Below, piece by piece: positions 28,920 through 61,412 of a stretch of DNA of 64,000 nt. Each line of letters begins with the position of its first letter. The stretch's first letter is position 1. The position numbers and the translations under genes are program-made. The stretch spans positions 3,829 through 67,828 of the IMG/VR virus record IMGVR_UViG_3300029117_000001, one strand, 5' to 3'. The DNA is from a virus. Under the pieces are notes generated by a model. The model saw only the letters and a list, made by a program, of their open reading frames with translations. It was not told the origin of the DNA and did not search any database.

Positions 28920-28926
28920 AATGATT

Positions 28927-30103: not shown

Positions 30104-30125
30104 ACAATCTGAAAGGAGTGATAAA

Positions 30126-30302: not shown

Positions 30303-30426
30303 AAAACAGCCGTAGCACCGACCAAAGCACAAACGACTGTTTAAGCAACCAGAAGTCTCACATCTGGTAATCAATATCTTATCATTTGTGAGACTTCTTT
30401 TCAAGAGAAAAGGAGTATTTTTTTAT

Positions 30427-31188: not shown

Positions 31189-31224
31189 TTAGATTTTTAC
31201 AGGGATACACAGGAGGAAAATAAA

Positions 31225-31476: not shown

Positions 31477-31480
31477 TCGT

Positions 31481-31777
31481 ATGGCAAATAGAATCCAGTT
31501 CAATGACTTTCAGAAAAAGAGTGTGTACGCCAAGTGCAACGGAAAATGTGCGATATGCGGTAAGCCTGTCAAATTCAAGAAAATGACAATCGACCACATT
31601 ATGCCGTTGTCTCGTGGCGGCACAAATGATATTAAGAATCTGCAACTGGCGTGTAAGCGTTGCAACAGCATGAAGAGTAACATGACAATGGATGATATGA
31701 TGGGGCAGATTTCCGAGATTTTGAAGTATAACCGCAAACAGAAGTTGATTAGAGTGTTGGGAGGAATTATAGAATGA
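31481..31777 (+). CDS. HNH endonuclease
   Basis: CNGKCAICGKP ... DHIMPLSRGGTNDIKNLQLACKRCNSMK: HNH with a Cys4 site. Confidence 0.65.
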   Translation: MANRIQFNDFQKKSVYAKCNGKCAICGKPVKFKKMTIDHIMPLSRGGTNDIKNLQLACKRCNSMKSNMTMDDMMGQISEILKYNRKQKLIRVLGGIIE

Positions 31778-31786
31778 TACCATAGT

Positions 31787-31811
31787 ATACTGAATGATAC
31801 TTTCAACGTAT
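31787..31811 (+). promoter_or_regulatory. copy C of the 25-nt recurring motif, followed by an extended -10
   Basis: GATACCATAGTATACTGAATGATAC, then TGtTATAAT at about 31817-31825, then a hairpin plus T-run before the Rha gene. Confidence 0.4.
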
Positions 31812-31913
31812 GTTATAATATAAAATCATAATAAGCAAATTTTAAAGCGTTTACCTTTTGGGGTAGGCGCTTTTTTGTTGCCAAAAAATAAATCATAAAG
31901 GAGATATGAATTT

Positions 31914-32573
31914 ATGCTGGTAGAAATCGTTGGAAAAAGATACGAAGAGAAACTTATTACAACAAGTCTGAAAGTTGCAGAGGTTTTTGAGAAAGAACAT
32001 AAGAATGTTCTACAATCAATTGAAAATCTCGTGGCTGATAATTCAGCTGCCAAATTTTTTCAACTTACAACATATAAGAACCGTGGAAAAGAATATCCAA
32101 TGTACGAAATGGATAGAGATGGTTTTTCCTTGCTCGTAATGGGCTTTACTGGTGAAAAAGCCTTACAATGGAAAATTAAGTATATTGAAGCCTTCAACAA
32201 GATGGAAAGCGAGTTAAAACGCTTATATACAGAACGCCAGCAATGGCAAATTGAACGTGACAAGGGTGTTGTTATTCGGCATATCCTCACAGATACAATT
32301 AAGATGAAAATAACAGAAAGCCCAAATAAGAGATTTGCTTATCCAAATTATACAAATCTGATTTATCGCAATTTGTTCGGAAAGACAGCAAAAGAGCTTG
32401 AAAGTGATTATGGAGTAAAAGCAAAAGAGAATCTTAGAGATTTCTTCACAGGTGATGACTTGGCGAAAGTTCAGAGTATGGAAATGCTTGTAAGTAGCCT
32501 TATTAATTGCGGATGGGGATATCAGCAAATTAAAGAATTTATCCGAAGCGAAGCAACAAAAATGATTGCATGA
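31914..32573 (+). CDS. phage regulatory protein Rha
   Basis: N-terminus TTSLKVAEVFEKEHKNVLQSIENL is the Rha family signature; RBS AAAGGAGATATG. Confidence 0.7.
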   Translation: MLVEIVGKRYEEKLITTSLKVAEVFEKEHKNVLQSIENLVADNSAAKFFQLTTYKNRGKEYPMYEMDRDGFSLLVMGFTGEKALQWKIKYIEAFNKMESELKRLYTERQQWQIERDKGVVIRHILTDTIKMKITESPNKRFAYPNYTNLIYRNLFGKTAKELESDYGVKAKENLRDFFTGDDLAKVQSMEMLVSSLINCGWGYQQIKEFIRSEATKMIA

Positions 32574-38598: not shown

Positions 38599-38798
38599 TT
38601 ATGTGTTAGAGAGCTGCGGAAATTATAGCCTCCTTATCACGGTACAGCTATACTTGTGGTAAGGAGGTGATGTCATTATGACAGAGAATTTAATCATGGT
38701 AGGTATATTGTATAAAAAGTTTATGTTAAAGAGCATCCCATTTGGGGTGCTTTTTATTATGCACTTTTTTAACCTCAACAATGAAAGGAGAACATACA

Positions 38799-39604
38799 TG
38801 AATATCAATACCTCATTAATCAGCAACAACAACAGCTACGCCGGACAGACACCTCTGTATATTGTCATCCACAATACGGATAATACCGCCAAGACAGCAG
38901 ATGCCAAGGCACACGCCACCGCACAGCATAACGGCAATTTTCATGGCTATTCAGCCCACGTATTCGTTGATGATAAATCAGCATACCAAGCTTTGCCGTA
39001 TAATCGTGGAGCATGGCACGTTGGCGTAAATTACGGCAGTAAGCTTTTTGGAACTATAAACAATCACAACTCTATCGGGATTGAAATGTGCATGAATGCC
39101 GGTTACAACTACGAAAAGGCATTCCAAAATACAGTTGATGTATGTAAGAAGCTTATGAAAAAATACGGCATTCCGGCAAGCCGAGTTGTTCAGCACTACG
39201 ATGTTTGCGCTAAGAATTGTCCTTCCGTTATCCGTGGAAAGGGTGACTGGAATAGATTTAAGAAGCTTATTTCCAGTGAAACCGTGACAGTTCCAACCAC
39301 AAAGCCGACAGTAAAGATTGACAAGTATTACCGTGTCCGCAAGACCTGGAAGGATTCCAAGAGCCAGATCGGGGCGTACAAGTCACTCAAAAATGCAAAG
39401 AAAGCTTGCAAAGCCGGTTATTCTGTTTTTGATTGGAATGGAAAAGCTGTGTATTCCGTGACTGCAAAGAAAAGTGTAGCCAAGGTAGCAAAAGAGGTAA
39501 TTAACGGCGAGTGGGGGAACGGACAAGATAGACGAGACCGCCTGGAAGCTGCCGGCTACAACTACGCAGAAGTGCAGAAAAAAGTCAATGAATTACTGAA
39601 ATAA
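38799..39604 (+). CDS. endolysin: N-acetylmuramoyl-L-alanine amidase (Amidase_2/PGRP fold) with a C-terminal cell-wall-binding region
   Basis: PLYIVIHNTDNTA ... GYSAHVFVDD ... HYDVCAKNCP are amidase_2 zinc and catalytic motifs; C-terminal INGEWGNGQDRRDRLEAAGYNYAEVQKKVNELL is the lysin C-terminal motif. Strong RBS GAAAGGAG. An in-frame alternative start at 38678 adds a 40-aa hydrophobic extension. Confidence 0.8.
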
Positions 39605-39631: not shown

Positions 39632-40333
39632 TTACTTAAATGTCGTATATTCTTCAAATTCGTTTCTTATTTTTGCAAAGTCTTTTCTTCTGATAGGCAC
39701 AGTATTTCCAGAAAACATAAGGAACGAAGTGTTTATTTCTTTTACCTCGTCCATGTTTATTATGTAGCTCTGGTGACACCTCAAGAATCTGGAATCCAGT
39801 AATTCTTCAATATCGGATAGTTTACATCGTTCCGTATAAACTATACCGCAAGTGCAGTGGATAATGATGTATTTGTTTCGGCTCTCAATATATTCGATAT
39901 TTTGAAACTCCACCCGATGAATAAAGTCTTTTCCTTTTATCATAAGAGTGCTTTTGCTGATATGTTCCAGAGCATGATTGAAAGCACTATACATTCTGCC
40001 GTTTTCAGAACCTTTTATGATATAGTGTACCGGGAGTATATCAAGAGCTTCAAAAACATACTCTTTGTGGGCTGTCCAGAAAATAATATTTCCATTATAG
40101 CCATTTAATCTCAATTCCTTTGCGACTTCAATTCCATTTTCTTCTTTCAAAACGATATCCAAAACCACAATATCATACCACTCGCCATCTGCCACATCAT
40201 CAATAAGCGGCTGCCCTTTATCATACGGAGTAATCAATGCTTTTATATCACCATTTCGTTTGAGAAAATTATTAATCCGATGCATAAATATATCAATCTG
40301 GATTTCGCTATCATCACATATTGCAATTCTCAT
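39632..40333 (-). CDS. LytTR-family response regulator (receiver plus LytTR DNA-binding domain), orphan
   Basis: Receiver motifs MRIAICDDS and IVVLDIVL (acidic pocket) with K at the FWTAHKEY position; C-terminal LytTR domain (FIHRVEFQNIEYIESRNKYIIIHC ... LRCHQSYIINMDEV). No adjacent histidine kinase. Confidence 0.8.
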   Translation of the reverse strand: MRIAICDDSEIQIDIFMHRINNFLKRNGDIKALITPYDKGQPLIDDVADGEWYDIVVLDIVLKEENGIEVAKELRLNGYNGNIIFWTAHKEYVFEALDILPVHYIIKGSENGRMYSAFNHALEHISKSTLMIKGKDFIHRVEFQNIEYIESRNKYIIIHCTCGIVYTERCKLSDIEELLDSRFLRCHQSYIINMDEVKEINTSFLMFSGNTVPIRRKDFAKIRNEFEEYTTFK

Positions 40334-44322: not shown

Positions 44323-44604
44323 ATGATTAAATTCGAAAACGGTTTAGTTAACATTTCTGGTAAAGGGATTGATATTCTTTCAGAGTATGCAGTTATTACC
44401 CATGAAATTAAAGAGATGTTCGTAAAGGATGGTGGAGAAGAGGAAGAAGTAAAAGAGCAGCTTAGACATTCGTTCGAGCATGGCCTTATGAACGAGGAAG
44501 AACTTGACAAGCGGTTTATTGAAGCTATGAAAGATCCTGGTTTAGTAGGAATGTTAATTGGAGCAGCTGGGCTTTCGTTATTATTCGGTCAGAAGGACAA
44601 GTAG
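44323..44604 (+). CDS. hypothetical protein whose 3' end abuts or overlaps the left end of the IS
   Basis: RBS AAGGAGGAAAAATAGCATG. Confidence 0.4.
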   Translation: MIKFENGLVNISGKGIDILSEYAVITHEIKEMFVKDGGEEEEVKEQLRHSFEHGLMNEEELDKRFIEAMKDPGLVGMLIGAAGLSLLFGQKDK

Positions 44605-44605
44605 A

Positions 44606-45760
44606 TTGCTGAAGAGTTTCAAGACAGAGATCGACCCTACCAAAGAGCAGAAGACCAAAATACATAAGACAATCGGCACATGCAGATATATTTATAATTT
44701 TTACCTGTTTCATAATAAAGAACGTTATGATGCCGGCAAAAGATTTATGAGTGGCAAGGCGTTCAGTGTATGGCTGAATAATGAGTATCTTCCGAATCAT
44801 CCAGAATATTCATGGATCAGAAAGGTCAGTTCCAAATCAGTAAAGAATGCGATCGAAAATGCATGCACAGCGTTTTTAAGATTTTTTCATCATCAGAGCG
44901 GTTTTCCAAGATATAAGAAAAAAGGAAGATCTGATGTGAAAATGTATTTTGTAAGGAATAATCCAAAAGACTGTTTTTGCGAAAGGCACAGGATCAAGAT
45001 TCCTACACTTGGATGGGTAAGGCTGAAAGAAAAAGGGTATCTCCCGACATCTAAGGATGGATATGTGATCCGAAGTGGAGCAGTTTCTATGAAAGCAGGA
45101 AGATATTATGTTTCTGCGCTTATCGAAGTACCAGCACCGGAAGTGGGTAAAAATTTCAGTGATGGGATCGGGATCGATCTGGGGATTAAGGATCTGGCTA
45201 TTGTGTCGAATGGAACTATATACAGAAATATCAATAAAACCGCACAGATCAGAAAACTTGAGAAACAATTAAGACGGGGACAGCGAAAGCTTTCCAGCAA
45301 ATCTGAAAATTTAAAGAAAGGAGAGTTCACTCAAAGAGCAAATATACGAAAACAAAAGCTCAAGGTACAGAAACTTTATCACCGGATGGAAAATATCCGT
45401 ACAGATCATATAAATAAGGCAATATCTGAGATTGTGAAAACCAAGCCGTCTCACATAACGATTGAGGATCTGAACGTATCCGGGATGATGAAGAACCGGA
45501 ATCTCTCAAAAGCAGTTGCGTCACAAAAATTCTATGAATTCCGGATGAAACTGAAAGCAAAATGTGCAGAATATGGAATCGAACTGAGGGTAGTTGATAG
45601 GTGGTATCCATCTTCAAAGATCTGTCATTGTTGTGGATGTATCAAAAAAGATCTGAAACTTTCGGACAGGATCTACAGATGTGTATGCGGTTATACTGAA
45701 GACAGAGATTTCAATGCAGCACTGAATCTGAGGGATGCTAAGACTTACGAAATTGCATGA
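44606..45760 (+). CDS. tnpB: TnpB (RuvC-like RNA-guided nuclease of IS200/IS605 family)
   Basis: LLKSFKTEIDPTKEQ N-terminus typical of TnpB; RuvC-I GIDLGIKDLA, RuvC-II ITIEDLNVSGM, zinc finger CHCCGC ... CVCGY, RuvC-III DRDFNAALN. TTG start at 44606 inferred; an in-frame ATG at 44558 is the alternative. Confidence 0.8.
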   Translation: MLKSFKTEIDPTKEQKTKIHKTIGTCRYIYNFYLFHNKERYDAGKRFMSGKAFSVWLNNEYLPNHPEYSWIRKVSSKSVKNAIENACTAFLRFFHHQSGFPRYKKKGRSDVKMYFVRNNPKDCFCERHRIKIPTLGWVRLKEKGYLPTSKDGYVIRSGAVSMKAGRYYVSALIEVPAPEVGKNFSDGIGIDLGIKDLAIVSNGTIYRNINKTAQIRKLEKQLRRGQRKLSSKSENLKKGEFTQRANIRKQKLKVQKLYHRMENIRTDHINKAISEIVKTKPSHITIEDLNVSGMMKNRNLSKAVASQKFYEFRMKLKAKCAEYGIELRVVDRWYPSSKICHCCGCIKKDLKLSDRIYRCVCGYTEDRDFNAALNLRDAKTYEIA

Positions 45761-45935
45761 TCTCGCAAGCGTAAGTATGTACCGAAGGCTATTTCGGGAA
45801 TTAACGACTGTGGAGTGTACTTAGGATCTGTGAGTAGAGATAACTTCGGTTACTTAAAAACATACACGAAGAAACAGTAAGCGGTATTCGTGAGAATCCG
45901 CATTATCTCGATGTGAGTATGTTTGATCACATTTT
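45650..45935 (+). ncRNA. candidate TnpB omega-RNA (right-end RNA)
   Basis: Inferred from position (3' end of tnpB plus downstream stem-loops CCGAAGGCTATTTCGGG and GCGGTATTC ... GAATCCGC). Confidence 0.3.
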
Positions 45936-46581: not shown

Positions 46582-47199
46582 ATGCAAAGATTAAATAAAG
46601 TAAGATTATCCGGCAGAGCCGGGGAAATAGTATTTAGCCACGAACATTACGGAAGATACTATTACAAATTCATGCTGACAGTTATTCGTAAAAGCGGTGC
46701 AGTAGATATGTTTCCAATCGTTATAGAAGATTCCGTTGTGCGTGATAATGATTACAACGGAAAAGAAGTTGTGGTAACAGGAGCAATCAGAAGCATGGAC
46801 ACTTCTAAAAATCCAAATAAGCACCACAATGTTAGTTATATCGCAGCTGATGAAGTAGAAATCCTGGATGAACAGGTTCCAGATGGCGATATAAACAAAG
46901 TAGAGTTTATTGCCAGAAGTTGCACGAAAGAGCCATATGCAAAACTTACATCAGTAACGCACAGAAAAGTTTCAAATCTTTTTGTAGCAATTCCAAGAGA
47001 GTATTCAGAAAGAGCGGATTTTATTCGCTGTACTTTATGGGGAAAAGGTGCTGATCTGGCGGTAGAGGTTAAAAGAAATGATTACATTAAAGTAACTGGC
47101 AGGTTAATGAGCCGTGATGTTTATGTTAATGGGGAAGAAACGGAAAGTGTATATGAGATTTCCGTAAAAGAAATGGAGAAATTGGAGGATGAAGAATAA
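46582..47199 (+). CDS. SSB-like protein with two OB folds (paralog 1)
   Basis: N-terminus NKVRLSGRAGEIV ... and C-terminal ADFIRCTLWGKGADLAVEVKRNDYIKVTGRLMSRDVY ... ESVYEISV parallel the E. coli SSB segment [37 protein letters not shown] ... TEVVV. Two such units are present per polypeptide. Confidence 0.5.
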   Translation: MQRLNKVRLSGRAGEIVFSHEHYGRYYYKFMLTVIRKSGAVDMFPIVIEDSVVRDNDYNGKEVVVTGAIRSMDTSKNPNKHHNVSYIAADEVEILDEQVPDGDINKVEFIARSCTKEPYAKLTSVTHRKVSNLFVAIPREYSERADFIRCTLWGKGADLAVEVKRNDYIKVTGRLMSRDVYVNGEETESVYEISVKEMEKLEDEE

Positions 47200-47851
47200 T
47201 AAGAATAAAGTTCAGATGTATGGCGTAATAATGGATATTCAGCCAGGAACGTTTTTCAAGGACGGAGAAAAATTCGTAAGATTCTATATTGGTGCAAAGC
47301 GTACCAGTGGGAACGTAGATTTGCTTCCAGTAATTGTTGAAGAAAAGCAGACGGAAGGCTTAAAGATTGGAAAACACGTCTATGTTGAAGGAAGATACAG
47401 TTCTTCAAACAAACATGAAAGTGGAAAGTCACATTTGATTCTTAAAATCAAAGCGGAAACAATCTGGTGTGGAGATGGTGATGGGAGTGCAGAAGGTGAA
47501 AACAAAATCATTCTGGAAGGTTATCTTTGCAAGCCTCCTATTTACCGCAGAACACCAAGAGGAAAAGAAATCTGTGATTTGATGATTGCTTGCAATGAAT
47601 ATGACTTGCGAAGAACAGATTATATCCCATGTATAGCATGGTGGAAAGAAGCCAGAGAAGCTGCTGATTTCAAGGTTGGAGATTTCGTAAAAATAATCGG
47701 AAGAATCCAGAGCCGGATTTATCATAAAAAATTATCTGGTGATGAAGTAGAGCTTAGAACTGCATATGAGGTATCAATAGGGAGGATAATCGAGCATGAA
47801 GGTGGAAGTAAAAAAGATTTCGTTGGAGAATTACAAGAAGTTTCCGAGTAA
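47189..47851 (+). CDS. SSB-like protein with two OB folds (paralog 2)
   Basis: TDYIPCIAWWKEAREAADFKVGDFVKIIGRIQSRIYHKK ... AYEVSI is the same pattern; overlaps its neighbours on both sides. Confidence 0.5.
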   Translation: MKNNKNKVQMYGVIMDIQPGTFFKDGEKFVRFYIGAKRTSGNVDLLPVIVEEKQTEGLKIGKHVYVEGRYSSSNKHESGKSHLILKIKAETIWCGDGDGSAEGENKIILEGYLCKPPIYRRTPRGKEICDLMIACNEYDLRRTDYIPCIAWWKEAREAADFKVGDFVKIIGRIQSRIYHKKLSGDEVELRTAYEVSIGRIIEHEGGSKKDFVGELQEVSE

Positions 47852-49823
47852 GTCTGTAGATTTGTTTCCAAGAACAGAGATTTCTGGCAGAAACAGAGAA
47901 GGAAAATCCACATTGCAGGACGCATATTTGGACGTTCTGACAGGAAAGATGGCAAATGGTACAGAACCGACTTCTATTAGAAGAAAAGAAAATGGCTTGG
48001 AAGTGCCAAAAGTTGATGTTATAAGAGAGCTTACGCTTGCGATTGATGGAAAAGAAAAAGTGATCCGCAAAATCACAAAACAGAAGTGGAGAAAACCGAG
48101 GGGACAATCCGAAGAGGTGTTCGATGGAAATGAAACTTCTTATGAAATTGACGGATTCCCGGCTAAATCAAAGGATTATACCGAGTTCATCCAGTCAATA
48201 GCAGAACCTTCAACGCTTCTGATGTGCAGTAACCCAAAACCATTTCTGGACACATTGCAGAAGTCAACAGCAGAATCCAGAAAGGTACTGGAAAAGATGT
48301 CTGGTTTTGATATTGCACAGTTTATGGAAGAAAATCCACAGTACGCTCATGTGGAAGAAATCACAAAAGGGCATTCCGTAGAGGATACCTTGAAGAAGCT
48401 CCGAAAGGAACTGAATGCACAGAAGAAAAAGGTGGATGCCAAAAACACGGAGATTGCATATGAAACCAATCGAAGCATTGAAGCAGAAGATACTTCCTCC
48501 CTAGAATCCAAAAAACAGGAGCTTAATGCGGAGCTTTCCAAACTGGAAGAACAGGAAAAGATTCTTGAAGATTCAGCAAAAGGCTATGACAGCCTTACAT
48601 ATGAAATCCGAGGGCTGAAATCTTCCAGGGATGGACTTGTTAGCAAGGCAGATAATGAGCTGAAAGACAAGAAAGCAGCCATTATGAATGTGTATTATGA
48701 CCTTGCAAAAAATAAAATTGAAAAAGAATCAGCTATCCGAATGTTGGGAATGGAACTGGACAACCACATAAGAGCTGGGCAACAGGCGAAAGCTGACTTG
48801 GATAGAGCCAGACAGGACTATCCGAGAATCAAAGAAATGGAGTGGGATGATTCTGAACTGAAAGCTATTGAAGCTGAAACATTCAATGATTCTGATACTA
48901 TTTGCCCTACCTGTGGACAAGAGCTGCCAGAAGAACAAGTTTCCGAATTGAGAGCTTCCTTTGAAGAAAAGAAGAAGTTTAGAATTGAAAATGAATTAAC
49001 CAAAAAGCAAAACTGGGAATCAGCAAAACAGAACCAGTTGAAAGGAACTTGTGATCTTGGAAATTCTGCTGCTGCAAAATTAAAGAAAACTAACGAGGAA
49101 ATCAACAAATTACAGTCGGAAATCGGCGCAGCACAGGATGAAGTTGATGAACTTACTAAGCAGATTGAGGAAGAACAGTCCAAATTTACGGAGCTTCCAG
49201 AATCTGTAGATATGACAAATGATGAAGAATATCTTGCAGTTACAGTGAGAATTGCAGAACTTGAAGAGAAACTGAAATCATTTGATGATGTTACTGGAAA
49301 GAAACAGGAATTAAGAATGCAGATCAGCAATGTTATGAAACAGATTTCCAATGTGGATGCAGACATTAAGATTGCACAGGCAGCAGTCACAGAGAAAGAA
49401 AAGCGAGTAGCCGAACTGAATGAGGAACTGAAAAGCCTTGGACAGGTACAAGCTGATATTGAAAAGAACATTGATACCGTTCTTAACTTCTCAATCCAGA
49501 AGAATAAGGCACTGGCAGAGAAAATCAATCCATTTTTCCATCATTTTCAGTTCAGTTTCCTTGATTACACGATTGAGGGAAATCCAGTGGAGACTTGCAA
49601 GATGATCTGCAATGGAATTGATTACAACAGCGGATTGAATCATTCAGATAAGATTCTGTGTGAGGTCGATTTACTGAATGGATTACAGGAAATGAATGGG
49701 CTGAATATGCCGATTTGGATTGATGATTCGGAGAGCATTGATAAAAGCAGAATCCCTGTATTAGACAGGCAAATGATCGTACTAAGAGTGACGGACGATG
49801 ATTTGAGAGTGAGAAAAATTTAA
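47796..49823 (+). CDS. SbcC/Rad50/SMC-like ATPase (recombination/repair)
   Basis: Walker A GRNREGKST at the N-terminus; about 400 aa of coiled coil; a central Cys-x2-Cys zinc-hook-like motif (ICPTCGQELPEEQ); C-terminal signature and Walker B/D-loop region (LNMPIWIDDSESID). Confidence 0.65.
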   Translation: MKVEVKKISLENYKKFPSKSVDLFPRTEISGRNREGKSTLQDAYLDVLTGKMANGTEPTSIRRKENGLEVPKVDVIRELTLAIDGKEKVIRKITKQKWRKPRGQSEEVFDGNETSYEIDGFPAKSKDYTEFIQSIAEPSTLLMCSNPKPFLDTLQKSTAESRKVLEKMSGFDIAQFMEENPQYAHVEEITKGHSVEDTLKKLRKELNAQKKKVDAKNTEIAYETNRSIEAEDTSSLESKKQELNAELSKLEEQEKILEDSAKGYDSLTYEIRGLKSSRDGLVSKADNELKDKKAAIMNVYYDLAKNKIEKESAIRMLGMELDNHIRAGQQAKADLDRARQDYPRIKEMEWDDSELKAIEAETFNDSDTICPTCGQELPEEQVSELRASFEEKKKFRIENELTKKQNWESAKQNQLKGTCDLGNSAAAKLKKTNEEINKLQSEIGAAQDEVDELTKQIEEEQSKFTELPESVDMTNDEEYLAVTVRIAELEEKLKSFDDVTGKKQELRMQISNVMKQISNVDADIKIAQAAVTEKEKRVAELNEELKSLGQVQADIEKNIDTVLNFSIQKNKALAEKINPFFHHFQFSFLDYTIEGNPVETCKMICNGIDYNSGLNHSDKILCEVDLLNGLQEMNGLNMPIWIDDSESIDKSRIPVLDRQMIVLRVTDDDLRVRKI

Positions 49824-50452: not shown

Positions 50453-51478
50453 ATATTGAGGCCGCTACTGTGCTGATATGCCTACAGGAGTAGGAAGAAA
50501 TCAAACTATATTATGGCACATTATATTGCTAAATAGGACAATACATAATATCACAGAGCACAGCAAAACACCTTATTCTTGTAGGGACATGAGTGCAGTA
50601 GCGGCGAAATTCCTACGTTGATATGCCTGTAAAACAGGCAAGTAAAGTACAGGAAAAAACAGAACGCCACAAGACAACACAGGATAGTTCGAAACAGAAT
50701 ATTCGCTTGATTTTACAGGTTTATGAGCGTAGGAAACCACAGCATTTATCAGTCTGCATAAGCGGAACAAAACTTCACGAAAGTATAACACAGTAAAAAA
50801 GACAAAAGAATAGCATATGACATTGCAGAATACTTTCACTGTTTATGCAGAGCGACAAGTGTTGTGACACTTAATAAAAAATAGCATATGAAACTATAGG
50901 AAATAAAACGGAAGAACAACAGATTACACACAGCACTTACCGGATGGGCTGTTTTGTAGGCGGTATAAATCGTCAAGACAGAACACTACAGTACAACACA
51001 ATACAAAACACAACATATGACTTTTATATCGTCTATAAAGCAGCCCTCTAAAATCTGAATATTGGGTAGGTGACATGAGATGTCACAGCAAAGAACAGGA
51101 TAGCACATTATATTACAAAACAAGACATTACAGAACACTTCATGTTACCTACCGAGTATTCAACACCAAGTGTATTTAGTTGGCAGTAGAAACTGTCATA
51201 ATAGGAAACCATAAAATCTTATATGTGAGAACAAAATAATACAGTAAACAATAGCACAACACAAGACAAGCTTTCTACTGCTTGCTAAGTGCATTTGGAG
51301 TTTGCACAAAGATTTAAGCGGATTATTTCGCAGAACAGAAAATTGTAGCACAGTTAAGAATAGTACAATATAGAACAAGATAGCACAAAACATTAATTGT
51401 ATATTGTAAATAATCCGTTTAAGTGTTTGTACAAACAAAAACTATAAATAAAATCATTTGTTTTAGGAGGAAAACAAC
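50453..51478. repeat. ~1 kb ORF-poor, A+C-rich non-coding region with many iteron-like repeats (candidate origin or regulatory hub)
   Basis: Recurrent (A/G)ATAG(N)ACAA motifs (AGGATAGCACA, GAATAGTACAATATAGAACAAGATAGCACAAAAC, ATAGCATATGA twice), perfect palindrome GTGACATGAGATGTCAC, flanking inverted repeat GGCCGCTACTGTGC/GCAGTAGCGGC; G-poor on the + strand. Confidence 0.55.
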
Positions 51479-52458: not shown

Positions 52459-53406
52459 ATGGCAGGAAAAACACAGTTAGCAACAACAGGAGAACAACAG
52501 GCGGCAATTGTAATTAACAACTCATTCATTGATGGATTGGTTAAGCAGCTTGAAAAAAAATGCGAATATGGTCTTTCGTTCCCAAAAGACTACAACCTAA
52601 GCAATGCGCTCATGGGGGCGTATCTGATTCTGAAAGAAACAAAAGACAGAAATAATAAGCCAATTCTGGAATCTTGCACATCCACAAGCATTGCAAACAG
52701 TCTTATGAACATGGCAACACTTGGTCTTTCAGTGCAGAAAAAGCAAGGATATTTTATTTCTTACGGAAATCAGTGTCAGTTCCAGAGGTCTTACTTCGGA
52801 AACATTACAATAGCCAGAAGATACGGAATGAAAGATATTCACGCCGAGATCATCTACCAAGGAGATAAGTTCAAATACCACATTGAAGATGGAAACAAGG
52901 TACTTGATTCCCACGAACAGGACTTTATGAATATTGATAATGATAAAATTCTTGGCGCATATGCAGTAGTGCTGATGGAAGATGGAACAAAGCATTTGGA
53001 AGTAATGAACATGAAGCAGATCAAACAATCTTGGTTACAGGGCTATGGGTACAAAGAAAACGGCAATGGAACGCATCAGAAATTCACTGACCAGATGGCA
53101 AAGAAAACAGTTATCAATCGTGCATTAAAGCAGATTATCAACAGCCACGGTGATGTTTTTGTACAGGAAGCTGACGAGAATACAGAGGATATTCCAAAAC
53201 AGGATATTATTGAACAAGACGTTGCTTATGAAATTAGTGAGAACGCAAACACAGAAGAATTCATTCCACAACCAGAAGTAATCGAAGAAAAGCCAAAGCA
53301 GCCAACCGTAGCCGAAACCGTAAAAACAACAGAGAAAGAACCAGTTCCGGCAGCAGAGCCAGTGGAAACAGAAATTCCGTCATTTATGAGCCAGGAGGAA
53401 ATGTAG
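52459..53406 (+). CDS. recT: RecT-family single-strand annealing recombinase
   Basis: Central region ILGAYAVV ... QMAKKTVINRALK characteristic of RecT/Red-beta; acidic C-terminal tail; strong RBS AAAAGGAGAATTAAAATG. Confidence 0.7.
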   Translation: MAGKTQLATTGEQQAAIVINNSFIDGLVKQLEKKCEYGLSFPKDYNLSNALMGAYLILKETKDRNNKPILESCTSTSIANSLMNMATLGLSVQKKQGYFISYGNQCQFQRSYFGNITIARRYGMKDIHAEIIYQGDKFKYHIEDGNKVLDSHEQDFMNIDNDKILGAYAVVLMEDGTKHLEVMNMKQIKQSWLQGYGYKENGNGTHQKFTDQMAKKTVINRALKQIINSHGDVFVQEADENTEDIPKQDIIEQDVAYEISENANTEEFIPQPEVIEEKPKQPTVAETVKTTEKEPVPAAEPVETEIPSFMSQEEM

Positions 53407-53582
53407 GATGGAAACTTCCACAATTGTGCTTATTATTTTGCTTTCAATAGCACTTTTGGGATGGATAGTAACTTTTATTCGAAAAAATGAATACAATCGA
53501 ACCAATTTAATTATTCTTTTAAATGTTATTACATATGTGGTACTCATTATAATCCGACTTACAATGTAAAAGGAGAGTCAAA

Positions 53583-53858
53583 ATGAAGCATAAATGTATT
53601 AAGACAGCAGTATTAGTCACAGGGGCTATAGCAATCATAATGTTTAGTGGTTGTTCTTCCTGTAGCAGATCATTAAAATCACTATCCAGTGATATTGACG
53701 GCGGTCTGAACCGTACCGTAACTGTTTACGATTACAACGGCGGTAAAATTAAGTCCTGGTCTGGAAAGTTTGATGTTTCCGAATCAGAGAATGAAGTTTA
53801 CTTTGATGATTCTGACGGAAAAAGAGTTATTATCCATGGCGGTATTGTAGTGAATTAG
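53583..53858 (+). CDS. small lipoprotein
   Basis: Signal peptide with lipobox MFSG-C (LVTGAIAIIMFSGCSS); strong RBS. Confidence 0.45.
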   Translation: MKHKCIKTAVLVTGAIAIIMFSGCSSCSRSLKSLSSDIDGGLNRTVTVYDYNGGKIKSWSGKFDVSESENEVYFDDSDGKRVIIHGGIVVN

Positions 53859-53881: not shown

Positions 53882-54481
53882 ATGAATGAAATTTTAAAGA
53901 AAGCAAAAGAACGGGTTGAACTTTTAGAGAAGCAGGAGAAAAGTGGGAAAATCAAATTATCAGAGTTGAACCCTGGTGATGTATTCCAAACTACAGGTAA
54001 AAGAAAATACAAAGTGTTGGAACAGTATGAAAATACCACCAAGATAGTTTCTTTTGACCTTGTAAAAGAAAATGTAAAATTCGGGGATAATGCAGATTAT
54101 TTAGAGTCTGAATTAAAAGAACTTTGTGACACGGAAATTTTAGCGAATTTTGAAGAGGAATTTGGTGCGGAGAATATTGAAACACATGAAGCAGATCTTA
54201 TTACGGTCGACGGTCAGAATACAGGCGTTTCGGTGAAATGTAAAATCAGACCTCTTACATTTGATGAAGCAAGAAAATATACGGAATTAACTCCGAACAA
54301 AAAACTTAATGACTGGTATTGGACATGTACATCTTGGTCAACAAAAGAACGCGGATGGAGTAGCGTTGCCGTTGTTTCCTCCTCGGGTAGCGTCAGCTAC
54401 TTTAACCGCATCAGTGACATCGGTGTTCGCCCAGTTTGTATCTTAAAATCTAATCTCTTTGTATCTAAAGTGGAGGAATAA
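53882..54481 (+). CDS. DGR target protein 1 (DUF1566 / C-type-lectin-fold variable protein) carrying VR1
   Basis: C-terminus ...WYWTCTSWST ... SVAVVSSSGSVSYFNRISDIGVRPVCI; the DNA at 54368-54442 is homologous to the TR with differences mostly at TR adenines. Confidence 0.7.
   Translation: MNEILKKAKERVELLEKQEKSGKIKLSELNPGDVFQTTGKRKYKVLEQYENTTKIVSFDLVKENVKFGDNADYLESELKELCDTEILANFEEEFGAENIETHEADLITVDGQNTGVSVKCKIRPLTFDEARKYTELTPNKKLNDWYWTCTSWSTKERGWSSVAVVSSSGSVSYFNRISDIGVRPVCILKSNLFVSKVEE
54368..54442 (+). repeat. DGR variable repeat 1 (VR1)
   Basis: 75-bp homolog of the TR; about 9 differences, 8 of them at TR adenines and one T-to-C, plus a 3' IMH-like divergence. Confidence 0.7.
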
Positions 54482-54483
54482 AA

Positions 54484-55080
54484 ATGAAAAAAGATTTGAA
54501 ATATTTTGAGACAGAAATAAAAAGAATTACAGAGGAATTCGAGGATTACAAAAAGAAACACATGGGCACTCCGAAACCCGGGGAAGTGGTTGAAATTTCC
54601 GGTATGGAATGGATAATACTGGACAAGCTTCCGGATGGATATTTTGCAATTTTAAATAGTTTTTATGGTAAAACAAGAATGTTTGATTCAGATTCCAGCA
54701 ATTGGAAAGAAAGTTCTTTAAGAGAAGAATTAAACACATCATTTTTAGAAAAAATTAATACGCCTTTCGATGGAAATGCAGTTGTTGAATTTGACCGTAA
54801 CCTGTTGGCATTGGACGGGCAGACTGAATATGGAACTTGTAGAGATAAGATTTCACTCTTAACCGTGGATGAATACAGAAAATACAGGAAATATTTGCCA
54901 AATATGGATAAATGGTGGTGGCTTATTACACCATGGAGTACACCTTACAATGATTATTTTAAGAGCGTAGCCGTTGTTTCCTCCTCGGGTTACGTCGACT
55001 ACGGTAACTGCTACGATGTCTGCGGTGTTCGCCCAGTTTGTATCTTTTCCTCTTCAATCTTTGAATCAGACGAGGATTAA
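54484..55080 (+). CDS. DGR target protein 2 (DUF1566 / C-type-lectin-fold variable protein) carrying VR2
   Basis: Paralog of target 1; C-terminus KWWWLITPWST ... SVAVVSSSGYVDYGNCYDVCGVRPVCIF; VR2 at 54970-55044. Confidence 0.75.
   Translation: MKKDLKYFETEIKRITEEFEDYKKKHMGTPKPGEVVEISGMEWIILDKLPDGYFAILNSFYGKTRMFDSDSSNWKESSLREELNTSFLEKINTPFDGNAVVEFDRNLLALDGQTEYGTCRDKISLLTVDEYRKYRKYLPNMDKWWWLITPWSTPYNDYFKSVAVVSSSGYVDYGNCYDVCGVRPVCIFSSSIFESDED
54970..55044 (+). repeat. DGR variable repeat 2 (VR2)
   Basis: Every VR2/TR difference in the body of the repeat (about 11) maps to a TR adenine (A to T or G); the 3'-terminal CAACCTG/CAGTTTG difference looks like IMH versus IMH*. Confidence 0.8.
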
Positions 55081-55082: not shown

Positions 55083-55454
55083 ATGGCAAATGAAGATTTA
55101 CAGGTGATAATAAAAGCCAAGCAGTTAGCAAAGCACACGCTTATAGTAACCAGTAACGCGAGGAGATATCCTAAGAAATTCAGATTTTCTTTAGTTGATA
55201 AAATGAAGAACAAATCGCTCGAAATACACGCTAAGCTCTTTGAAGCCAATCGAACAAATTTGAAAGATTATAAGAGAGAAAGGCTAGAATTACAGACAAA
55301 AGCAATTACATATTGTGATGAACTTCTCTTTTATATAGAGCTTTCATACGAGCTTAATATCATTAATTCGGGAAGTATGGAGACATGGTCGAAAATGGTT
55401 ACAGATATTAAGCATATGGCGATTGCTTGGAGAACAAAAGACAGAAACAGATGA
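55083..55454 (+). CDS. avd: DGR accessory variability determinant (Avd-like small basic helical protein)
   Basis: 123 aa, basic, predicted helical; located between the VR gene and the TR exactly as in Bordetella phage BPP-1 (mtd-avd-TR-brt). Confidence 0.6.
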   Translation: MANEDLQVIIKAKQLAKHTLIVTSNARRYPKKFRFSLVDKMKNKSLEIHAKLFEANRTNLKDYKRERLELQTKAITYCDELLFYIELSYELNIINSGSMETWSKMVTDIKHMAIAWRTKDRNR

Positions 55455-55478
55455 TTTTTATAGGTTATGCGTTGTAGA

Positions 55479-55553
55479 GCCGTTGTTTCCTCCTCGGGTA
55501 ACGTCAACAACAATAACTGCAACAATGACAACGGTGTTCGCCCAACCTGTATC
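55479..55553 (+). repeat. DGR template repeat (TR)
   Basis: Adenine-rich (AACGTCAACAACAATAACTGCAACAATGACAAC) non-coding copy of the VRs, 24 nt after avd and 95 nt before the RT gene. Confidence 0.8.
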
Positions 55554-55648
55554 ACAGGCAGACAGAGTAAGCAGAAAGCTGAAATCCGAATAGATACAAG
55601 CAAATGCATAACCTTTCCGCAATGGATAAATATAAAGGAACAAAATAA

Positions 55649-56695
55649 ATGGATAAAGAAATTGTGGCAAATTTTGAAAACTTGTATTCATCTTACAAAC
55701 GAGTTAAGGCAGATAAGAAATTCAATTCCGGCACTGCCAGGTTTTCTATTATGGCGTTGGAAGGAATCCAAACATTGAAGGAACAATTGGAAAATCAAAC
55801 GTATTCCATAGCACCGTATAATAAATTCAAAATATATGAGCCGAAAGAACGCATCATAGAATCGTGTTCTTTCAAAGACAAGACGGTACAGAGATGCTTT
55901 TCAGACTACATTCTTACGCCGAAATTAAATAATATTTTTATAAAATGGAACACAGCAGGACAAATCGGAAAAGGTCATTATATGGCAATGGATGGTCTGC
56001 GAGATCATATGTTGGAATTTTACAGTAAAAATGGTTTAAATGGCTGGATTGTAAAATGCGATATTCGTAAATATTTTTACAGCATAGATCATGAAATCAT
56101 GAAAGACGTGGTGGATTACTATTTTGATGATGAATTTACAGTATGGTTAAATCATCTATTTATTGACAGCGCCGAAAATCCAGGACTTCCACTTGGAAAT
56201 CAAGTTAATCAGAAATACGCTTTACTGTTACTGCATTCGTTGGATCAAATGATAACAATTGAATACGGAATACAGCATTACGGAAGGTATAATGATGATT
56301 TCTATGTGATTTGTAAAAGTAAAGAAGAAGCCAGAGAAATACTTGAAGCTATCCGGATTATGACCGAAAGCCTTAAAATACAATTGAATACTAAATCACA
56401 GATTGTGCCATTTAGAATGGGATTGTGCTATCTTGGCTTTCACCATTATGTAACCTCCGATGGGAAATATATTAGAAAACTTCGAGGAGATAAAAAAAGA
56501 AAAACACACAGGAAGATTCGAAATTGGATTAGAGCTGTGAATAATGGCGAAATGACAGAAGAAAAATTTCAAGAAAAATATAATGCGTGTAAAAACAATA
56601 TGCTGCATGGGAATTGTATTAAATTATGCCACAGCATGGATTTGGATGTTAAGAAAAGAATGAAAAGAGGTGATGAAAAATGTTCATGCGAGTAG
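55649..56695 (+). CDS. DGR reverse transcriptase
   Basis: Motif-by-motif parallel to BPP-1 bRT: FKIYEPKERIIESCSFKDKTVQRC (compare FLVYEPKPRLISALEFKDRLVQHA), KCDIRKYFYSIDHE (KSDFSKFFPSIDRA), GLPLGNQVNQ (GIPIGSLTSQ, the DGR-specific replacement of QGxxxSP), RYNDDFYV (RYMDDIVV, YxDD), MGLCYLGFHHY (RGINFLGYRIW). Confidence 0.85.
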   Translation: MDKEIVANFENLYSSYKRVKADKKFNSGTARFSIMALEGIQTLKEQLENQTYSIAPYNKFKIYEPKERIIESCSFKDKTVQRCFSDYILTPKLNNIFIKWNTAGQIGKGHYMAMDGLRDHMLEFYSKNGLNGWIVKCDIRKYFYSIDHEIMKDVVDYYFDDEFTVWLNHLFIDSAENPGLPLGNQVNQKYALLLLHSLDQMITIEYGIQHYGRYNDDFYVICKSKEEAREILEAIRIMTESLKIQLNTKSQIVPFRMGLCYLGFHHYVTSDGKYIRKLRGDKKRKTHRKIRNWIRAVNNGEMTEEKFQEKYNACKNNMLHGNCIKLCHSMDLDVKKRMKRGDEKCSCE

Positions 56696-57447
56696 TAAAC
56701 ACAGGAAGTACCCATGGAAACTGCTATGTTCTGAAATCAAACACAGGAGAAATACTTCTTCTGGACTGCGGATGCAGATACAAAGACATTCTAAGAGCTA
56801 TTGATTACAGAACAAGTGATGTTTCTGGCGTATTGCTTAGTCATGAGCATGGAGATCACATCAAATCATTTCGGGAACTGATGAACGCCGGCATTCAGAT
56901 TTACACCAATGATGAAACCGTGGAACATCTGCAAATCATCACTGGTGAGCTGATGAAAGGTGTTCCAGAGAAAAGACCATTTCGGGTTGGCTCGTTTACA
57001 GTAATACCGTTCTATTTGCCACATACTACAAGGGACAAGGATACAGGGCAACTTATTCCGTGTTTCAATTATGGGTATATCGTGGAACATAAAGAGATGG
57101 GAAAGCTGTTGTATATGACAGACTTTGAGTTTTGCCGATACAATTTCAAGGCAATGCGACTGAACCACTTGGTTATTGAGTGCAACTATTGTGGAGAATT
57201 GGTTGACAAAACAGCCGAAAATTACACGCACAGGCTTAAAGGGCATTGTTCATTAGATACTTGCAAAAGCTTAGTAAATACGAACCATACGGCAGCATTA
57301 CGGACAGTAACATTGGTGCATTTGAGTAATGAAGCAGCTGACCCGGAACAGATTTTGAGGGAGATACAAGAAACGTCTGGTGCTGATGCACTCGTCCATA
57401 TCGCAACACCCGGGTTAGAAGTTAATTTGGACTTATGTCCATTTTGA
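56680..57447 (+). CDS. metallo-beta-lactamase-fold hydrolase (possible phage recombination or processing nuclease)
   Basis: HxHxDH motif LSHEHGDHIK plus downstream His/Asp residues; overlaps the RT stop by 16 nt (translational coupling). Confidence 0.65.
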   Translation: MFMRVVNTGSTHGNCYVLKSNTGEILLLDCGCRYKDILRAIDYRTSDVSGVLLSHEHGDHIKSFRELMNAGIQIYTNDETVEHLQIITGELMKGVPEKRPFRVGSFTVIPFYLPHTTRDKDTGQLIPCFNYGYIVEHKEMGKLLYMTDFEFCRYNFKAMRLNHLVIECNYCGELVDKTAENYTHRLKGHCSLDTCKSLVNTNHTAALRTVTLVHLSNEAADPEQILREIQETSGADALVHIATPGLEVNLDLCPF

Positions 57448-58968: not shown

Positions 58969-59394
58969 GTGAATATTGTTATTCTTTCTGGAAGATTAAC
59001 TGCTGATCCAGATATCAGAATGGGAACGAATGACACAAAAATTGCAAGATATATTTTGGCTGTAGAGAGAAGAGTAAAAAAGAACACGGAAAGAAAATCT
59101 GACTTTATCACTTGCGTATGTCTTGGGAAAAATGCAGAATTCGCAGAGAAATATCTTAAAAAAGGCACGAAAGTAAATGTGCGTGGAGAATGGCAGACTG
59201 GAAACTATACAAATAAAAATGGTGAAAAAGTCTACTCAAATGATTGCCTTGTTGCAGAACATGAATTTGCAGAAAGAAAAAGCCAGTCACCACAGACACA
59301 GGAAACAGATACACGACCAGTACCACCGCCAGAACCTAGTTTCATGGATGTGCCGGATTTAGGCGGTATGGAAGATGAATTTCCGTTTAGTTAG
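58969..59394 (+). CDS. ssb: single-stranded DNA-binding protein
   Basis: MNIVILSGRLTADPDIR ... DFITCVCLGKNAEFAEKYLKKGTKVNVRGEWQTGNY is the canonical SSB OB fold; acidic C-terminal tip MEDEFPFS (DDIPF-like); GTG start. Confidence 0.8.
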   Translation: MNIVILSGRLTADPDIRMGTNDTKIARYILAVERRVKKNTERKSDFITCVCLGKNAEFAEKYLKKGTKVNVRGEWQTGNYTNKNGEKVYSNDCLVAEHEFAERKSQSPQTQETDTRPVPPPEPSFMDVPDLGGMEDEFPFS

Positions 59395-60038: not shown

Positions 60039-61412
60039 ATGAAAGATTTAATTATAGATTGCTTTGCCGGGGGCGGCGGCGCATCCGTAGGCATTGAAAT
60101 GGCCCTTGGTAGACCTGTAGACATAGCAATTAACCATGATCCAGATGCAATTCTAATGCATAAGACTAATCATCCCGGAACACTGCATCTGACAGAAGAC
60201 ATTTTCAAAGTAGATTTGCAGAAATATGTCGGAAACCAGCACGTAGCGTTGATGTGGGCTTCACCAGATTGTACAAGCCATTCAAAAGCAAAAGGCGGTC
60301 AGCCAAGGAAACAGGGGCTTCGCATTCTTCCGTGGTCTGTATATAAGCACGCAAAAGCAATTCTCCCAGATGTAATTATTATGGAGAACGTGGAAGAAAT
60401 ACAACAATGGGGGCCATTGGACGAGAAAGGACATCCGATTAAGGAAAGAGCTGGCGAAGATTATCGAAAATTCATTTCAGCAATGGAAAATATTGGTTAT
60501 GAATTTGACAGCCGAGAACTGGTAGCTGCTGATTACGGAGCACCAACTACAAGAAAACGTTGGTATGCGGTGTTTCGCAGGGATGGAAAGCAGATAATAT
60601 GGCCAAAGCCTACTCATAATCGTTTTGGCGAAGATGGATTGAAGCCATATGAACAGTGCGGAGACTACATTGATTGGTCGGACTTAGGAAAAAGTATATT
60701 TGAACGCCCTAAACCATTGGCAGAAGCAACGCAGAAACGTATCGCAAATGGAATCAAGAAATATATCGTTGATAATCCAGATCCTTACATTGTGCAGAGT
60801 AAAGATGCACTGGCGTTTATCATTCAGTATCATGGGGAAACCAGGAAAGGCGATTCCAGAGGGCAGTTGTTAACCGAACCAATTAAGACTATTGATACCT
60901 CAAATAGGTATGGACTTGTGACAGCTTTTATCACGAAATATTACAAGACTGGAATCGGTCAAGGCTGTGATGAGCCATTGCATACAATAACCACATCGCC
61001 CGATCACTTCGGGGTAATATCTGCATTTCTGGTCAAGTATTATGGGACAGGATGCGGACAGGTGCTTAATGAGCCACTCGGAACTATCACCACAAAAGAC
61101 AGATTCGGTCTAGTAAACGTTCTGGTTGATATCCATGGAGAGAAATACATTATTTCAGATATCTTTCTCAGAATGCTAAAGCCAGAAGAACTGAAGGTGA
61201 TGCAGGGATTCCCGAAAGATTACATTATTGATCGGGATTACAAGTGGAGAGATTACCCGATTGCGAAACAAGTAGCAAGAATCGGAAATAGTGTGGTTCC
61301 GGTTATGGCAGAAGCACTTGTGAAAGCAAATTGTCCGTATCTGAAAATTGGAGAACGCAAAGTTGCACCGATGATTTATATGCAGAATAATGGACAGGTA
61401 GCGTTTGGATAA
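60039..61412 (+). CDS. DNA (cytosine-5)-methyltransferase-like protein with a non-canonical motif IV
   Basis: Motif I DCFAGGGG, motif VI ENV (IIMENVEE), motif X GNSV (GNSVVPVMAEAL), Q..GFP motif; the expected PCQ catalytic motif is replaced by ASPDCTSHS. Confidence 0.65.
   Translation: MKDLIIDCFAGGGGASVGIEMALGRPVDIAINHDPDAILMHKTNHPGTLHLTEDIFKVDLQKYVGNQHVALMWASPDCTSHSKAKGGQPRKQGLRILPWSVYKHAKAILPDVIIMENVEEIQQWGPLDEKGHPIKERAGEDYRKFISAMENIGYEFDSRELVAADYGAPTTRKRWYAVFRRDGKQIIWPKPTHNRFGEDGLKPYEQCGDYIDWSDLGKSIFERPKPLAEATQKRIANGIKKYIVDNPDPYIVQSKDALAFIIQYHGETRKGDSRGQLLTEPIKTIDTSNRYGLVTAFITKYYKTGIGQGCDEPLHTITTSPDHFGVISAFLVKYYGTGCGQVLNEPLGTITTKDRFGLVNVLVDIHGEKYIISDIFLRMLKPEELKVMQGFPKDYIIDRDYKWRDYPIAKQVARIGNSVVPVMAEALVKANCPYLKIGERKVAPMIYMQNNGQVAFG

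Follow-up and report, generated by a model that had tools for sequence, protein, structure and literature searches.

A stretch of viral DNA 64,000 nucleotides long (IMG/VR record IMGVR_UViG_3300029117_000001, positions 3,829 to 67,828; hereafter the window) carries a diversity-generating retroelement (DGR) with two adjacent target genes, Target 1 (T1) and Target 2 (T2), which lie in a recombination module. This arrangement raises the question of whether both targets are still being diversified, and where their products act. An earlier reading, made from the sequence alone, considered the variable repeat of T1 (VR1) to be older and partly decayed beside that of T2 (VR2), and both proteins to be cytoplasmic. 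Here we argue that the locus is probably a complete and currently active DGR with two tandem paralogous targets, carried by a group of temperate siphophages of the Lachnospiraceae.

Organisation of the DGR cassette

A repeat search identifies an element of 75-76 nt in three copies, at the 3' ends of T1 and T2 and, as the template repeat (TR), in a non-coding gap. Each variable repeat (VR) ends in a candidate initiation of mutagenic homing (IMH) sequence, the counterpart of which in the TR is termed IMH*, and the cassette also encodes an Avd-like accessory protein and a reverse transcriptase (RT), in the following order.

53882-54481, plus strand: T1, 199 aa, ending in VR1
54367-54442, plus strand: VR1, T1 residues 162-187, with its mutable part at 54367-54420
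54421-54442, plus strand: IMH of VR1, CGGTGTTCGCCC-AGTTTGTATC, a G+C-rich block then the target-specific AGTT
54484-55080, plus strand: T2, 198 aa, ending in VR2, with the same predicted fold as T1
54969-55044, plus strand: VR2, T2 residues 162-187
55023-55044, plus strand: IMH of VR2, identical to that of VR1
55083-55454, plus strand: Avd-like accessory protein, 123 aa, between T2 and the TR
55478-55553, plus strand: TR, with IMH* at 55532-55553 (AACC)
55554-55648, plus strand: TR-RT spacer, presumed part of the DGR RNA and conserved in relatives, placing the TR end 95 nt upstream of the RT
55649-56695, plus strand: DGR reverse transcriptase, 348 aa, with a YNDD motif (Pfam RVT_1 5.5e-10; PADLOC RT 3e-30)

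The two targets are paralogues of 33% identity; both had been given as 199 aa, which is the length of T1, T2 being one residue shorter. The G+C-rich IMH that the sequence-only reading suggested looking for is present at each VR as the same 22 nt, CGGTGTTCGCCCAGTTTGTATC, and the TR counterpart, ...CCCAACCTGTATC, differs from it at three bases (AGTT vs AACC), so that the two have the form of an IMH/IMH* pair. Among relatives, VR1 never shows a mutation at the adenine of the IMH edge, and the transfer boundary is therefore placed there. Read in frame, the TR encodes A-V-V-S-S-S-G-N-V-N-N-N-N-C-N-N-D-N-G-V-R-P-T-C-I, with eight AAY codons, a classic design. The Avd-like open reading frame (ORF) matches the NCBIfam model DivGenRetAVD (NF033474) at 1.4e-9 and 38 bits, against a cut-off of 80, and the Pfam families bAvd and 23S_rRNA_IVP weakly, below gathering; its position and size fit the assignment.

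No target other than T1 and T2 is apparent. Pattern scans for adenine-to-any-base variants of the repeat across the window, with three mismatches allowed, return the three copies only, and a six-frame scan of the window with the DUF6273 profile, the family to which the targets belong (see below), returns T1, T2 and the TR frame only. The 1541-aa tail protein is, as had been claimed, without a VR by both kinds of scan. The idea of a remote VR, in the tail gene or at some other place, was likewise rejected, two motif scans of whole related contigs having returned only the tandem targets and the TR.

Adenine-specific substitution and the alleged defects of VR1

In the part 5' of the IMH, nine of 18 TR adenines and one of 48 other bases are changed in VR1 (Fisher p=1e-5), and 10 of the 18 adenines and none of the 48 other bases in VR2 (Fisher p=2e-7). 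Adenine-specific repeats, in company with a TR, an RT and an IMH/IMH* pair, indicate that the DGR and both of its targets are real. In the mechanism that we propose, the RT and the Avd-like protein would copy TR RNA into complementary DNA (cDNA), misincorporating opposite template adenines, and this cDNA would replace a mutable stretch of about 55 nt in VR1 or VR2. Homing would be directed by the identical IMH at the VR 3' ends, and the TR would be protected by the AACC that its IMH* carries instead of AGTT. Nine codons at the C-terminal tip of each protein (eight AAY, one GAC) would in this way be re-randomised, with the adenine-free Cys, Gly and Val codons remaining fixed.

The sequence-only reading took T1 for an older duplicate whose VR1 is no longer homed and is decaying, which would leave VR2 as the sole live target. 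The single non-adenine difference on which this view partly drew is indeed there: a T-to-C change (TR 55518, VR1 54407) turns the adenine-free Cys codon TGC into CGC (Arg176) and so destroys a templated cysteine. It is private to this contig, being found in just 1 of 24 distinct VR1 sequences, and sporadic non-adenine differences occur in both VRs of other contigs, VR2 included; such differences are also known from other gut-phage DGRs (PMC10743442, figure 9 legend). The change arose either when the RT erred at a base other than adenine or through mutation afterwards, and the next homing event into VR1 would erase it. The 5' junction of VR1 had been called more divergent, and one base does differ there (T at 54367; A in VR2 and at TR 55478), but it stands opposite a TR adenine and varies among relatives in both VRs, VR1 having any of A, T and G there and VR2 either A or T; it simply belongs to the mutable region.

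A hairpin was also said to follow VR2 and not VR1. The one after VR2 (TTCAA-TCT-TTGAA, 55053-55065) exists, but is A+T-rich and not distinguishable in folding energy from shuffles (-4.8 kcal/mol, z=-0.15), and VR1 is followed by a comparably weak one (CTTTG-TATC-TAAAG, 54457-54470; -1.1 kcal/mol under DNA parameters). That nothing clear forms 3' of VR1 under these parameters can be counted for decay. Both hairpins, however, lie inside coding sequence for the conserved C-terminal tails NLFVSK (VR1) and SIFES (VR2), and no compensatory changes or covariation were found in them among relatives, for which reasons they were rejected as homing elements. Where a DGR may have a stem-loop or cruciform just downstream of the IMH, this locus has only weak A+T-rich hairpins. 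A downstream stem-loop enhances homing in BPP-1, and the feature is not universal among DGRs.

Turnover of both variable repeats among relatives

Relatives were gathered by exact match to a 21-mer taken from the invariant 5' portion of the repeat, which gave 39 IMG/VR stretches and about 33 phage contigs, most of them 70-84 kb long and with the same 602/509-nt spacing; VR1, VR2 and TR were told apart by their distinct flanks. Distinct sequences made up 26 of 30 VR1 copies, 24 of 28 VR2 copies and 3 of 28 TR copies. Per-site entropy is confined to TR adenine positions and is of equal magnitude in the two VRs, each copy of which, VR1 and VR2 alike, carries 6-15 adenine substitutions. In pairs of contigs whose 300-nt upstream flanks are at most three bases apart, a median of 12 (VR1) and 11 (VR2) of the 18 adenine sites differ, so both VRs change far faster than the genome around them. 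Three contigs (L015, L026 and L033) have non-adenine markers in their TR (TGC to TGT, CGCCC to CACCC) that are also present in VR1, which directly shows VR1 to have been homed from that TR.

One difference between the repeats is seen at the IMH edge. At the equivalents of VR2 55036-55039, (A/G)GCT replaces AGTT in 7 of 28 relatives, a state in which one TR cytosine, and sometimes a mutated adenine too, has been transferred into VR2; the same was seen in 0 of 30 copies of VR1. The 3' crossover may be slightly different between VR1 and VR2, or descent within one lineage may account for the state.

This transfer could be enlisted for a decaying VR1, as could the lost cysteine. The comparison across relatives, which the sequence-only reading had itself put forward as a check and a possible refutation, finds the two VRs equally variable, at TR adenines only, and with the identical IMH, the TR markers in VR1 and the selection on T1 described below it refutes that reading and leaves a decayed or unhomed VR1 very improbable. 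Both VRs appear, from these sequence comparisons, to be undergoing diversification. Whether a VR is active cannot be read from one genome's lone mismatch at a non-adenine or from a single differing base at its junction; a cheap population comparison can settle it, and here shows that both targets are in use.

Conservation of the targets and of their position

The IMH motif alone finds more than 120 viral stretches among the matches listed, mostly with two hits 602-620 nt apart and in some cases with three tandem targets; the tandem pair and its IMH are conserved in this set. A tblastn search of the window proteins against fetched loci shows the order SSB-SbcC-(RecT)-T1-T2-Avd-TR-RT-MBL-SSB to be common to related loci, MBL denoting a metallo-beta-lactamase-fold hydrolase, and this synteny persists down to about 43% identity for T1/T2 and 56% for the RT. 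The same neighbourhood occurs in more than 100 related viral loci, in metagenome-assembled genomes (MAGs) of Lachnospiraceae and in one isolate. The reference-genome scan found it in MAGs of Dorea, Mediterraneibacter, Roseburia, Faecalimonas and Agathobacter and in the isolate Lachnospira intestinalis CLA-AA-H89B, with the SSB, SbcC, RecT and MBL neighbours again present and the tandem pair and its IMH conserved down to about 41-45% identity. A distant metagenome contig from NCBI has the same order, with a CxxCxxCC protein in the place of the lipoprotein that precedes T1 in the window. The module map of the window and the recurring synteny agree in placing the cassette in the early/recombination module and outside the tail module, as the sequence-only reading had it, a position that the synteny shows to be lineage-wide. 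A blastn search of the cassette against GenBank phages gave three short matches only, of 69-74% identity, to unannotated faecal contigs.

Complete target ORFs numbered about 250, with lengths of 198-205 aa in nearly every case, and in about 110 relatives the ORF of T1 is intact. Outside the VR, the median ratio of non-synonymous to synonymous substitution (dN/dS, Nei-Gojobori) is 0.17 (T1 class) and 0.23 (T2 class), values that indicate purifying selection on both scaffolds, on T1 if anything more. Since both scaffolds are kept by selection, neither T1 nor T2 is a decaying duplicate, and a pseudogenised T1 was ruled out by the intact ORFs and dN/dS.

Several relatives are rearranged. The RT has been lost and both targets kept in eight viral contigs (L006, L024, L032, L034, L080, L083, L087 and L099), where an Avd remnant of 24-48 aa abuts the MBL gene and TR and RT are deleted, and in the Lachnospira intestinalis isolate (L145), where a full-length Avd match is followed directly by recT and there is no RT match. 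In L019 (1569-1700) the VR1 5' flank is fused to the TR and its 3' flank, with T2 and avd deleted, unless the contig was chimerically assembled. Three target ORFs stand in tandem in L001, of which the middle one joins a T2 body to a T1 tail, and three IMH hits at target spacing in each of L043, L057+L081 and L095+L102 imply a third tandem target there.

Family and predicted fold of the targets

T2 matches DUF6273 (PF19789) at 28.3 bits, above the gathering score of 23.5, which T1 at 20.8 bits narrowly misses, and most homologues carry PF19789. Both also match phrog_9958 (T1 1.5e-25, T2 9e-52), to which no function is assigned. Each has more than 4200 homologues in a large protein collection (4231 for T1), almost all of about 200 aa and none with an informative name, and the family falls into 1946 clusters at 50% clustering.

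An AlphaFold2 model of T2, made from a diverse alignment of 133 sequences from a representative-profile search, has a mean predicted local distance difference test score (pLDDT) of 84.2 and a predicted template modelling score (pTM) of 0.80, with confidence lowest at the hypervariable residues 170-177; an earlier model from 46 close homologues (pLDDT 47.6) was discarded. The model shows a single N-terminal helix (residues 5-25), then one globular domain. In fold comparison it matches the C-terminal domain of Legionella Lcl (6.8) and the Treponema DGR target TvpA (6.5), as well as FGE-like domains and dozens of C-type lectins, with Mtd at 4.0 and TaqVP at 3.9. The model and these matches together mark T1 and T2 as minimal DGR targets of predicted C-type-lectin fold, with the VR on a C-terminal surface element. 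A fold search of BFVD found other unannotated DUF6273 proteins only, and single-sequence and profile searches of the PDB found nothing meaningful (best E 0.09-0.5).

The N-termini had been described as coiled-coil-like. One amphipathic helix of about 21 residues is predicted, with hydrophobic residues in T2 at 5, 8, 12, 15, 19 and 22 (a spacing of 3-4) and a shorter, partial pattern in T1, but this is too short for a coiled coil. The layout of helix plus domain resembles that of the neck helix and C-type lectin domain of trimeric collectins and tetranectin (e.g. 1HTN), a layout analogy only, with no sequence relationship. A protein of 6979 aa in the representative library (P0284) contains 20 stretches that match the N-terminal two-thirds of the T1/T2 profile, showing the fold in use as a repeat within a giant protein, presumably of the cell surface.

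Comparison with known systems

The cassette resembles the BPP-1 DGR (mtd-avd-TR-brt) in the order target-avd-TR-RT, in adenine-specific mutagenic homing, in a C-terminal VR within a C-type-lectin fold, and in a G+C-rich IMH at the VR 3' end with a non-identical IMH* in the TR. It differs in having two tandem targets where BPP-1 has one, in lacking a convincing G+C-rich post-IMH hairpin, and in lying in the recombination module, whereas the BPP-1 cassette is at the end of the tail genes. T1 and T2 do not qualify as Mtd-like determinants, in which an N-terminal beta-prism and beta-sandwich attach the trimer to the tail fibre.

DUF6273 has been described as a C-type-lectin DGR target domain of gut phages, and small DUF6273-only targets with short flanking helices are on record (PMC10743442, PMC11792537, 10.1101/2024.10.15.618418), one of which was proposed by its authors to bind receptors like Mtd (PMC10743442). 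The Faecalibacterium prophages Lelie and CP11 have a large and a small DUF6273 target (PMC11792537), and Toutatisvirus has two DUF6273 targets, some of its relatives keeping the targets without a DGR (10.1101/2024.10.15.618418). Compared by description, nd4_tgt2 and nd12_tgt2 (PMC10743442) and the small targets of Lelie and CP11 are like T1 and T2 in that DUF6273 makes up nearly the whole protein, with short helices and a C-terminal VR, in that one TR serves two VRs, and in coming from gut Firmicutes phages. Their partner target is different and larger (an Ig-domain tentaclin or a large target), whereas T1 and T2 are adjacent paralogues of each other and sometimes triplicated. T1 and T2 are not themselves tentaclins (PMC10743442), being 198-199 aa long with a C-terminal VR, and neither Pfam nor the model shows an Ig-like domain in them.

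Quimbyvirus, a Bacteroides phage, has a DGR target outside its structural module, among DNA-modification and counter-defence genes, which was read as non-structural (PMC8008677). The likeness to the present locus is that of a phage DGR target among DNA-metabolism or counter-defence genes; the differences are that Quimbyvirus has one target beside tail fibre genes and its remote one on the opposite strand, and infects another host phylum, whereas here both targets are in the non-structural module beside the RT and there is no structural target. Outside phages, the ThomasA IgA protease of Thomasclavelia ramosa (PDB 9QA6, PMC12402451), a secreted, sortase-anchored enzyme of 137 kDa, has an N-terminal DUF6273 domain which, unlike T1 and T2, is not DGR-diversified and is dispensable for catalysis. 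The locus therefore belongs to a described class of targets, and what is particular to it is the tandem pair of paralogous stand-alone targets, the lack of a target in the structural module and the fixed position in the recombination module.

Site of action of T1 and T2

That the targets lack signal peptides, as had been claimed, agrees with a hydropathy heuristic (which is not a proper predictor), by which neither has a hydrophobic (h-) region or a transmembrane segment: within the first 35 residues, 8-residue hydropathy peaks at -0.05 in T1 and -0.23 in T2, against 2.67 in the neighbouring lipoprotein, and no 19-residue window in either exceeds 1.0. The further step to a cytoplasmic location is not established by this. 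Phage virion proteins, Mtd included, normally have no signal peptide, being assembled in the cytoplasm and released by lysis. The absence of a signal peptide fits virion proteins equally well and does not discriminate.

T1 and T2 would be soluble ligand-binding proteins made without export signals, and by analogy their most likely site of action is outside the cell, where they would serve as diversified modules for receptor binding or adhesion, either docked on the virion via the N-terminal helix or released at lysis. The same role has been proposed for analogous small DUF6273 targets of other gut phages (PMC10743442), and elsewhere, judging from the fold matches and the same paper, the DUF6273/C-type-lectin fold is met with in proteins that are secreted or belong to the surface or the virion. 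One Cys codon of the VR is kept fixed by the TR, and the target family has an invariant Cys186; Cys pairs in related targets have been proposed to form a disulfide (PMC10743442), and a possible disulfide favours an extracellular protein. The early-module position would then reflect where the cassette resides and need not imply an intracellular role.

Several observations weigh against an active DGR with virion-docked or lysis-released targets. No virion-anchoring domain is recognisable in T1 or T2, neither Ig-like, beta-prism nor beta-sandwich, and the evidence assembled here places the proteins neither in nor out of the virion. Both lie within an operon-like run of early genes with no late promoter or terminator detected nearby, which is unexpected for virion genes. 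The targets are kept after loss of avd, TR and RT, which implies that the proteins work without ongoing diversification. The Avd match is under curated cut-offs, and the activity of the DGR is read from variation between contigs, as distinct from within-population reads or experiment. On transcription units, a promoter and terminator scan of 49.8-58.2 kb is uninformative, since it found promoter-like sites fewer than in shuffles and no excess of terminators.

Some of the same observations would fit an intracellular role, in which T1 and T2 are early-expressed, non-virion binders in phage-host conflict that, for instance, neutralise variable host defence proteins or exclude competing phages, as an antibody-like repertoire inside the cell. 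Their place between SSB-SbcC-RecT and MBL is kept across deep divergence, though gene position alone does not give the timing of expression. They have no signal peptide, transmembrane segment or virion-anchor domain, and the N-terminal extensions of longer homologues are unrecognised and are not tail or Ig domains: a Pfam scan of these homologues for N-terminal tail-fibre or Ig fusions found DUF6273 only, plus one sub-threshold TIM-barrel match. The MBL neighbour weakly resembles Apyc1 (anti-Pycsar), and the second DGR target of Quimbyvirus lies among defence-related genes (PMC8008677). T1 and T2, on the other hand, resemble no PADLOC defence model or known anti-defence family; a PADLOC scan of both and their neighbours gave no defence-system membership, the RT matching generic RT models only. 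The extracellular contexts of the fold and the templated and invariant cysteines (PMC10743442) also speak against such a role, and we consider it unlikely. Its lineage-wide form, a pair of intracellular early binders directed at variable host or rival-phage proteins and not part of the virion, would explain the fixed place in a recombination/anti-defence module and the missing virion anchor; we regard it as improbable.

A further explanation is that T1 and T2 are moron-like proteins of lysogenic conversion, released via vesicles or by lysis of a subpopulation and binding variable environmental or host glycans to the benefit of the bacterial host. The phage group is temperate and is found in Lachnospiraceae genomes, an isolate among them, a variable accessory slot with a lipoprotein gene lies directly upstream, and relatives without an RT retain both targets. 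A prophage DUF6273 tentaclin has been found in the extracellular-vesicle proteome of Faecalibacterium, with no visible phage particles (preprint 10.64898/2026.05.08.723808), but that case concerns Ig-domain tentaclins and not small proteins like T1 and T2. These two, moreover, are in the lytic early operon, co-oriented with replication genes and with no promoter or terminator of their own detected; we judge benefit to the lysogen to be distinctly improbable. Extracellular action, virion-docked or after release at lysis, is thus judged the most likely, followed at some distance by intracellular conflict and then by lysogen benefit.

A large and prevalent group of temperate Lachnospiraceae phages keeps two, sometimes three, tandem stand-alone C-type-lectin targets and their DGR in the early recombination module, and no member of the group has a tail-module target. 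The role of two or three diversified mini-lectins among the early genes of this widespread lineage of gut phages is a moderately interesting question. If T1 and T2 are virion-bound, structural role is poorly predicted by gene position in these phages; if not, phage DGR hypervariation extends beyond receptor binding, which has hitherto been suggested only from gene neighbourhood, for Quimbyvirus (PMC8008677), large surveys having classed viral DGR targets as structural or unknown (PMC8144416). An experimental route is offered by the related prophage in the cultured Lachnospira intestinalis CLA-AA-H89B, though this is an RT-less copy.

Neighbouring genes and the remainder of the window

The following features make up the rest of the module map, which was drawn from PHROG and Pfam scans.

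4374-6068: TerL
6589-8085: portal
9278-10312: major head protein
20504-25303: tape measure
between the tape measure and the 1541-aa tail protein: moron-rich stretch with HNH, superinfection-exclusion-like lipoprotein, Ig-like protein, antirepressor and Rha
32953-37578: 1541-aa tail protein
38678-39604: endolysin
between the endolysin and the SSB-like genes: LytTR regulator, Rha/antirepressors and transposase
46582-47851: SSB-like genes
47796-49823: SbcC-like ATPase
52459-53406, plus strand: recT (Pfam RecT 1.8e-39; NCBIfam TIGR00616 79.9 bits, above cut-off)
53583-53858, plus strand: 91-aa lipoprotein-like gene, with a signal h-region GAIAIIMF then SGC (phrog_2316 8e-15; weak DUF5052 match)
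56680-57447, plus strand: MBL-fold hydrolase (phrog_392 3e-56; Pfam Lactamase_B_2), a conserved downstream neighbour outside the DGR
58969-59394: SSB
60039-61412: DNA methyltransferase

The recT and lipoprotein genes had been described as flanking the targets; both identifications hold, on the Pfam match of the one and the clear signal of the other, and both genes lie upstream. The lipoprotein slot is variable, with other genes there in L040 and L145, and the 91-aa lipoprotein gene is an occupant of an accessory slot and no conserved part of the DGR. Between it and recT, a 53-aa ORF (53408-53569) consists almost wholly of hydrophobic residues (METSTIVLIILLSIALLGWIVTF...), in the manner of a small membrane protein. 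Downstream, the resemblance of the MBL hydrolase to Pfam Apyc1 (anti-Pycsar nuclease) amounts to 19.9 bits, where gathering requires 50; in its orthologues in L040 and L041 the precomputed Apyc1 match carries no weak mark.

Accessory genes fill 25512-32573: an HNH endonuclease directly 3' of the tape measure (25512-26783), the superinfection-exclusion-like lipoprotein (27960-28919), the minus-strand Ig-like (Big_2) protein (28956-29948), an anti-repressor (30388-31188) and a Rha regulator (31914-32573). The start of the HNH ORF is overlapped by an Rfam int-alpA RNA (25461-25533, plus strand, 45.4 bits, above gathering). A response regulator with Response_reg and LytTR DNA-binding domains (39632-40333, minus strand) adjoins the endolysin on the opposite strand. 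Further on, an Rfam RAGATH-18 RNA (45807-45880, plus strand, 57.7 bits, above gathering) lies directly 3' of a 400-aa transposase (44558-45760; phrog_506, 1e-109), and the two together resemble an insertion element with a structured RNA. In the early region, a non-coding gap of about 1 kb between ORFs of 155 aa and 225 aa holds three direct repeats of about 47 nt (50502-50548, 51089-51135 and 51349-51395; 64-74% identity), which could be iterons or operator sites.

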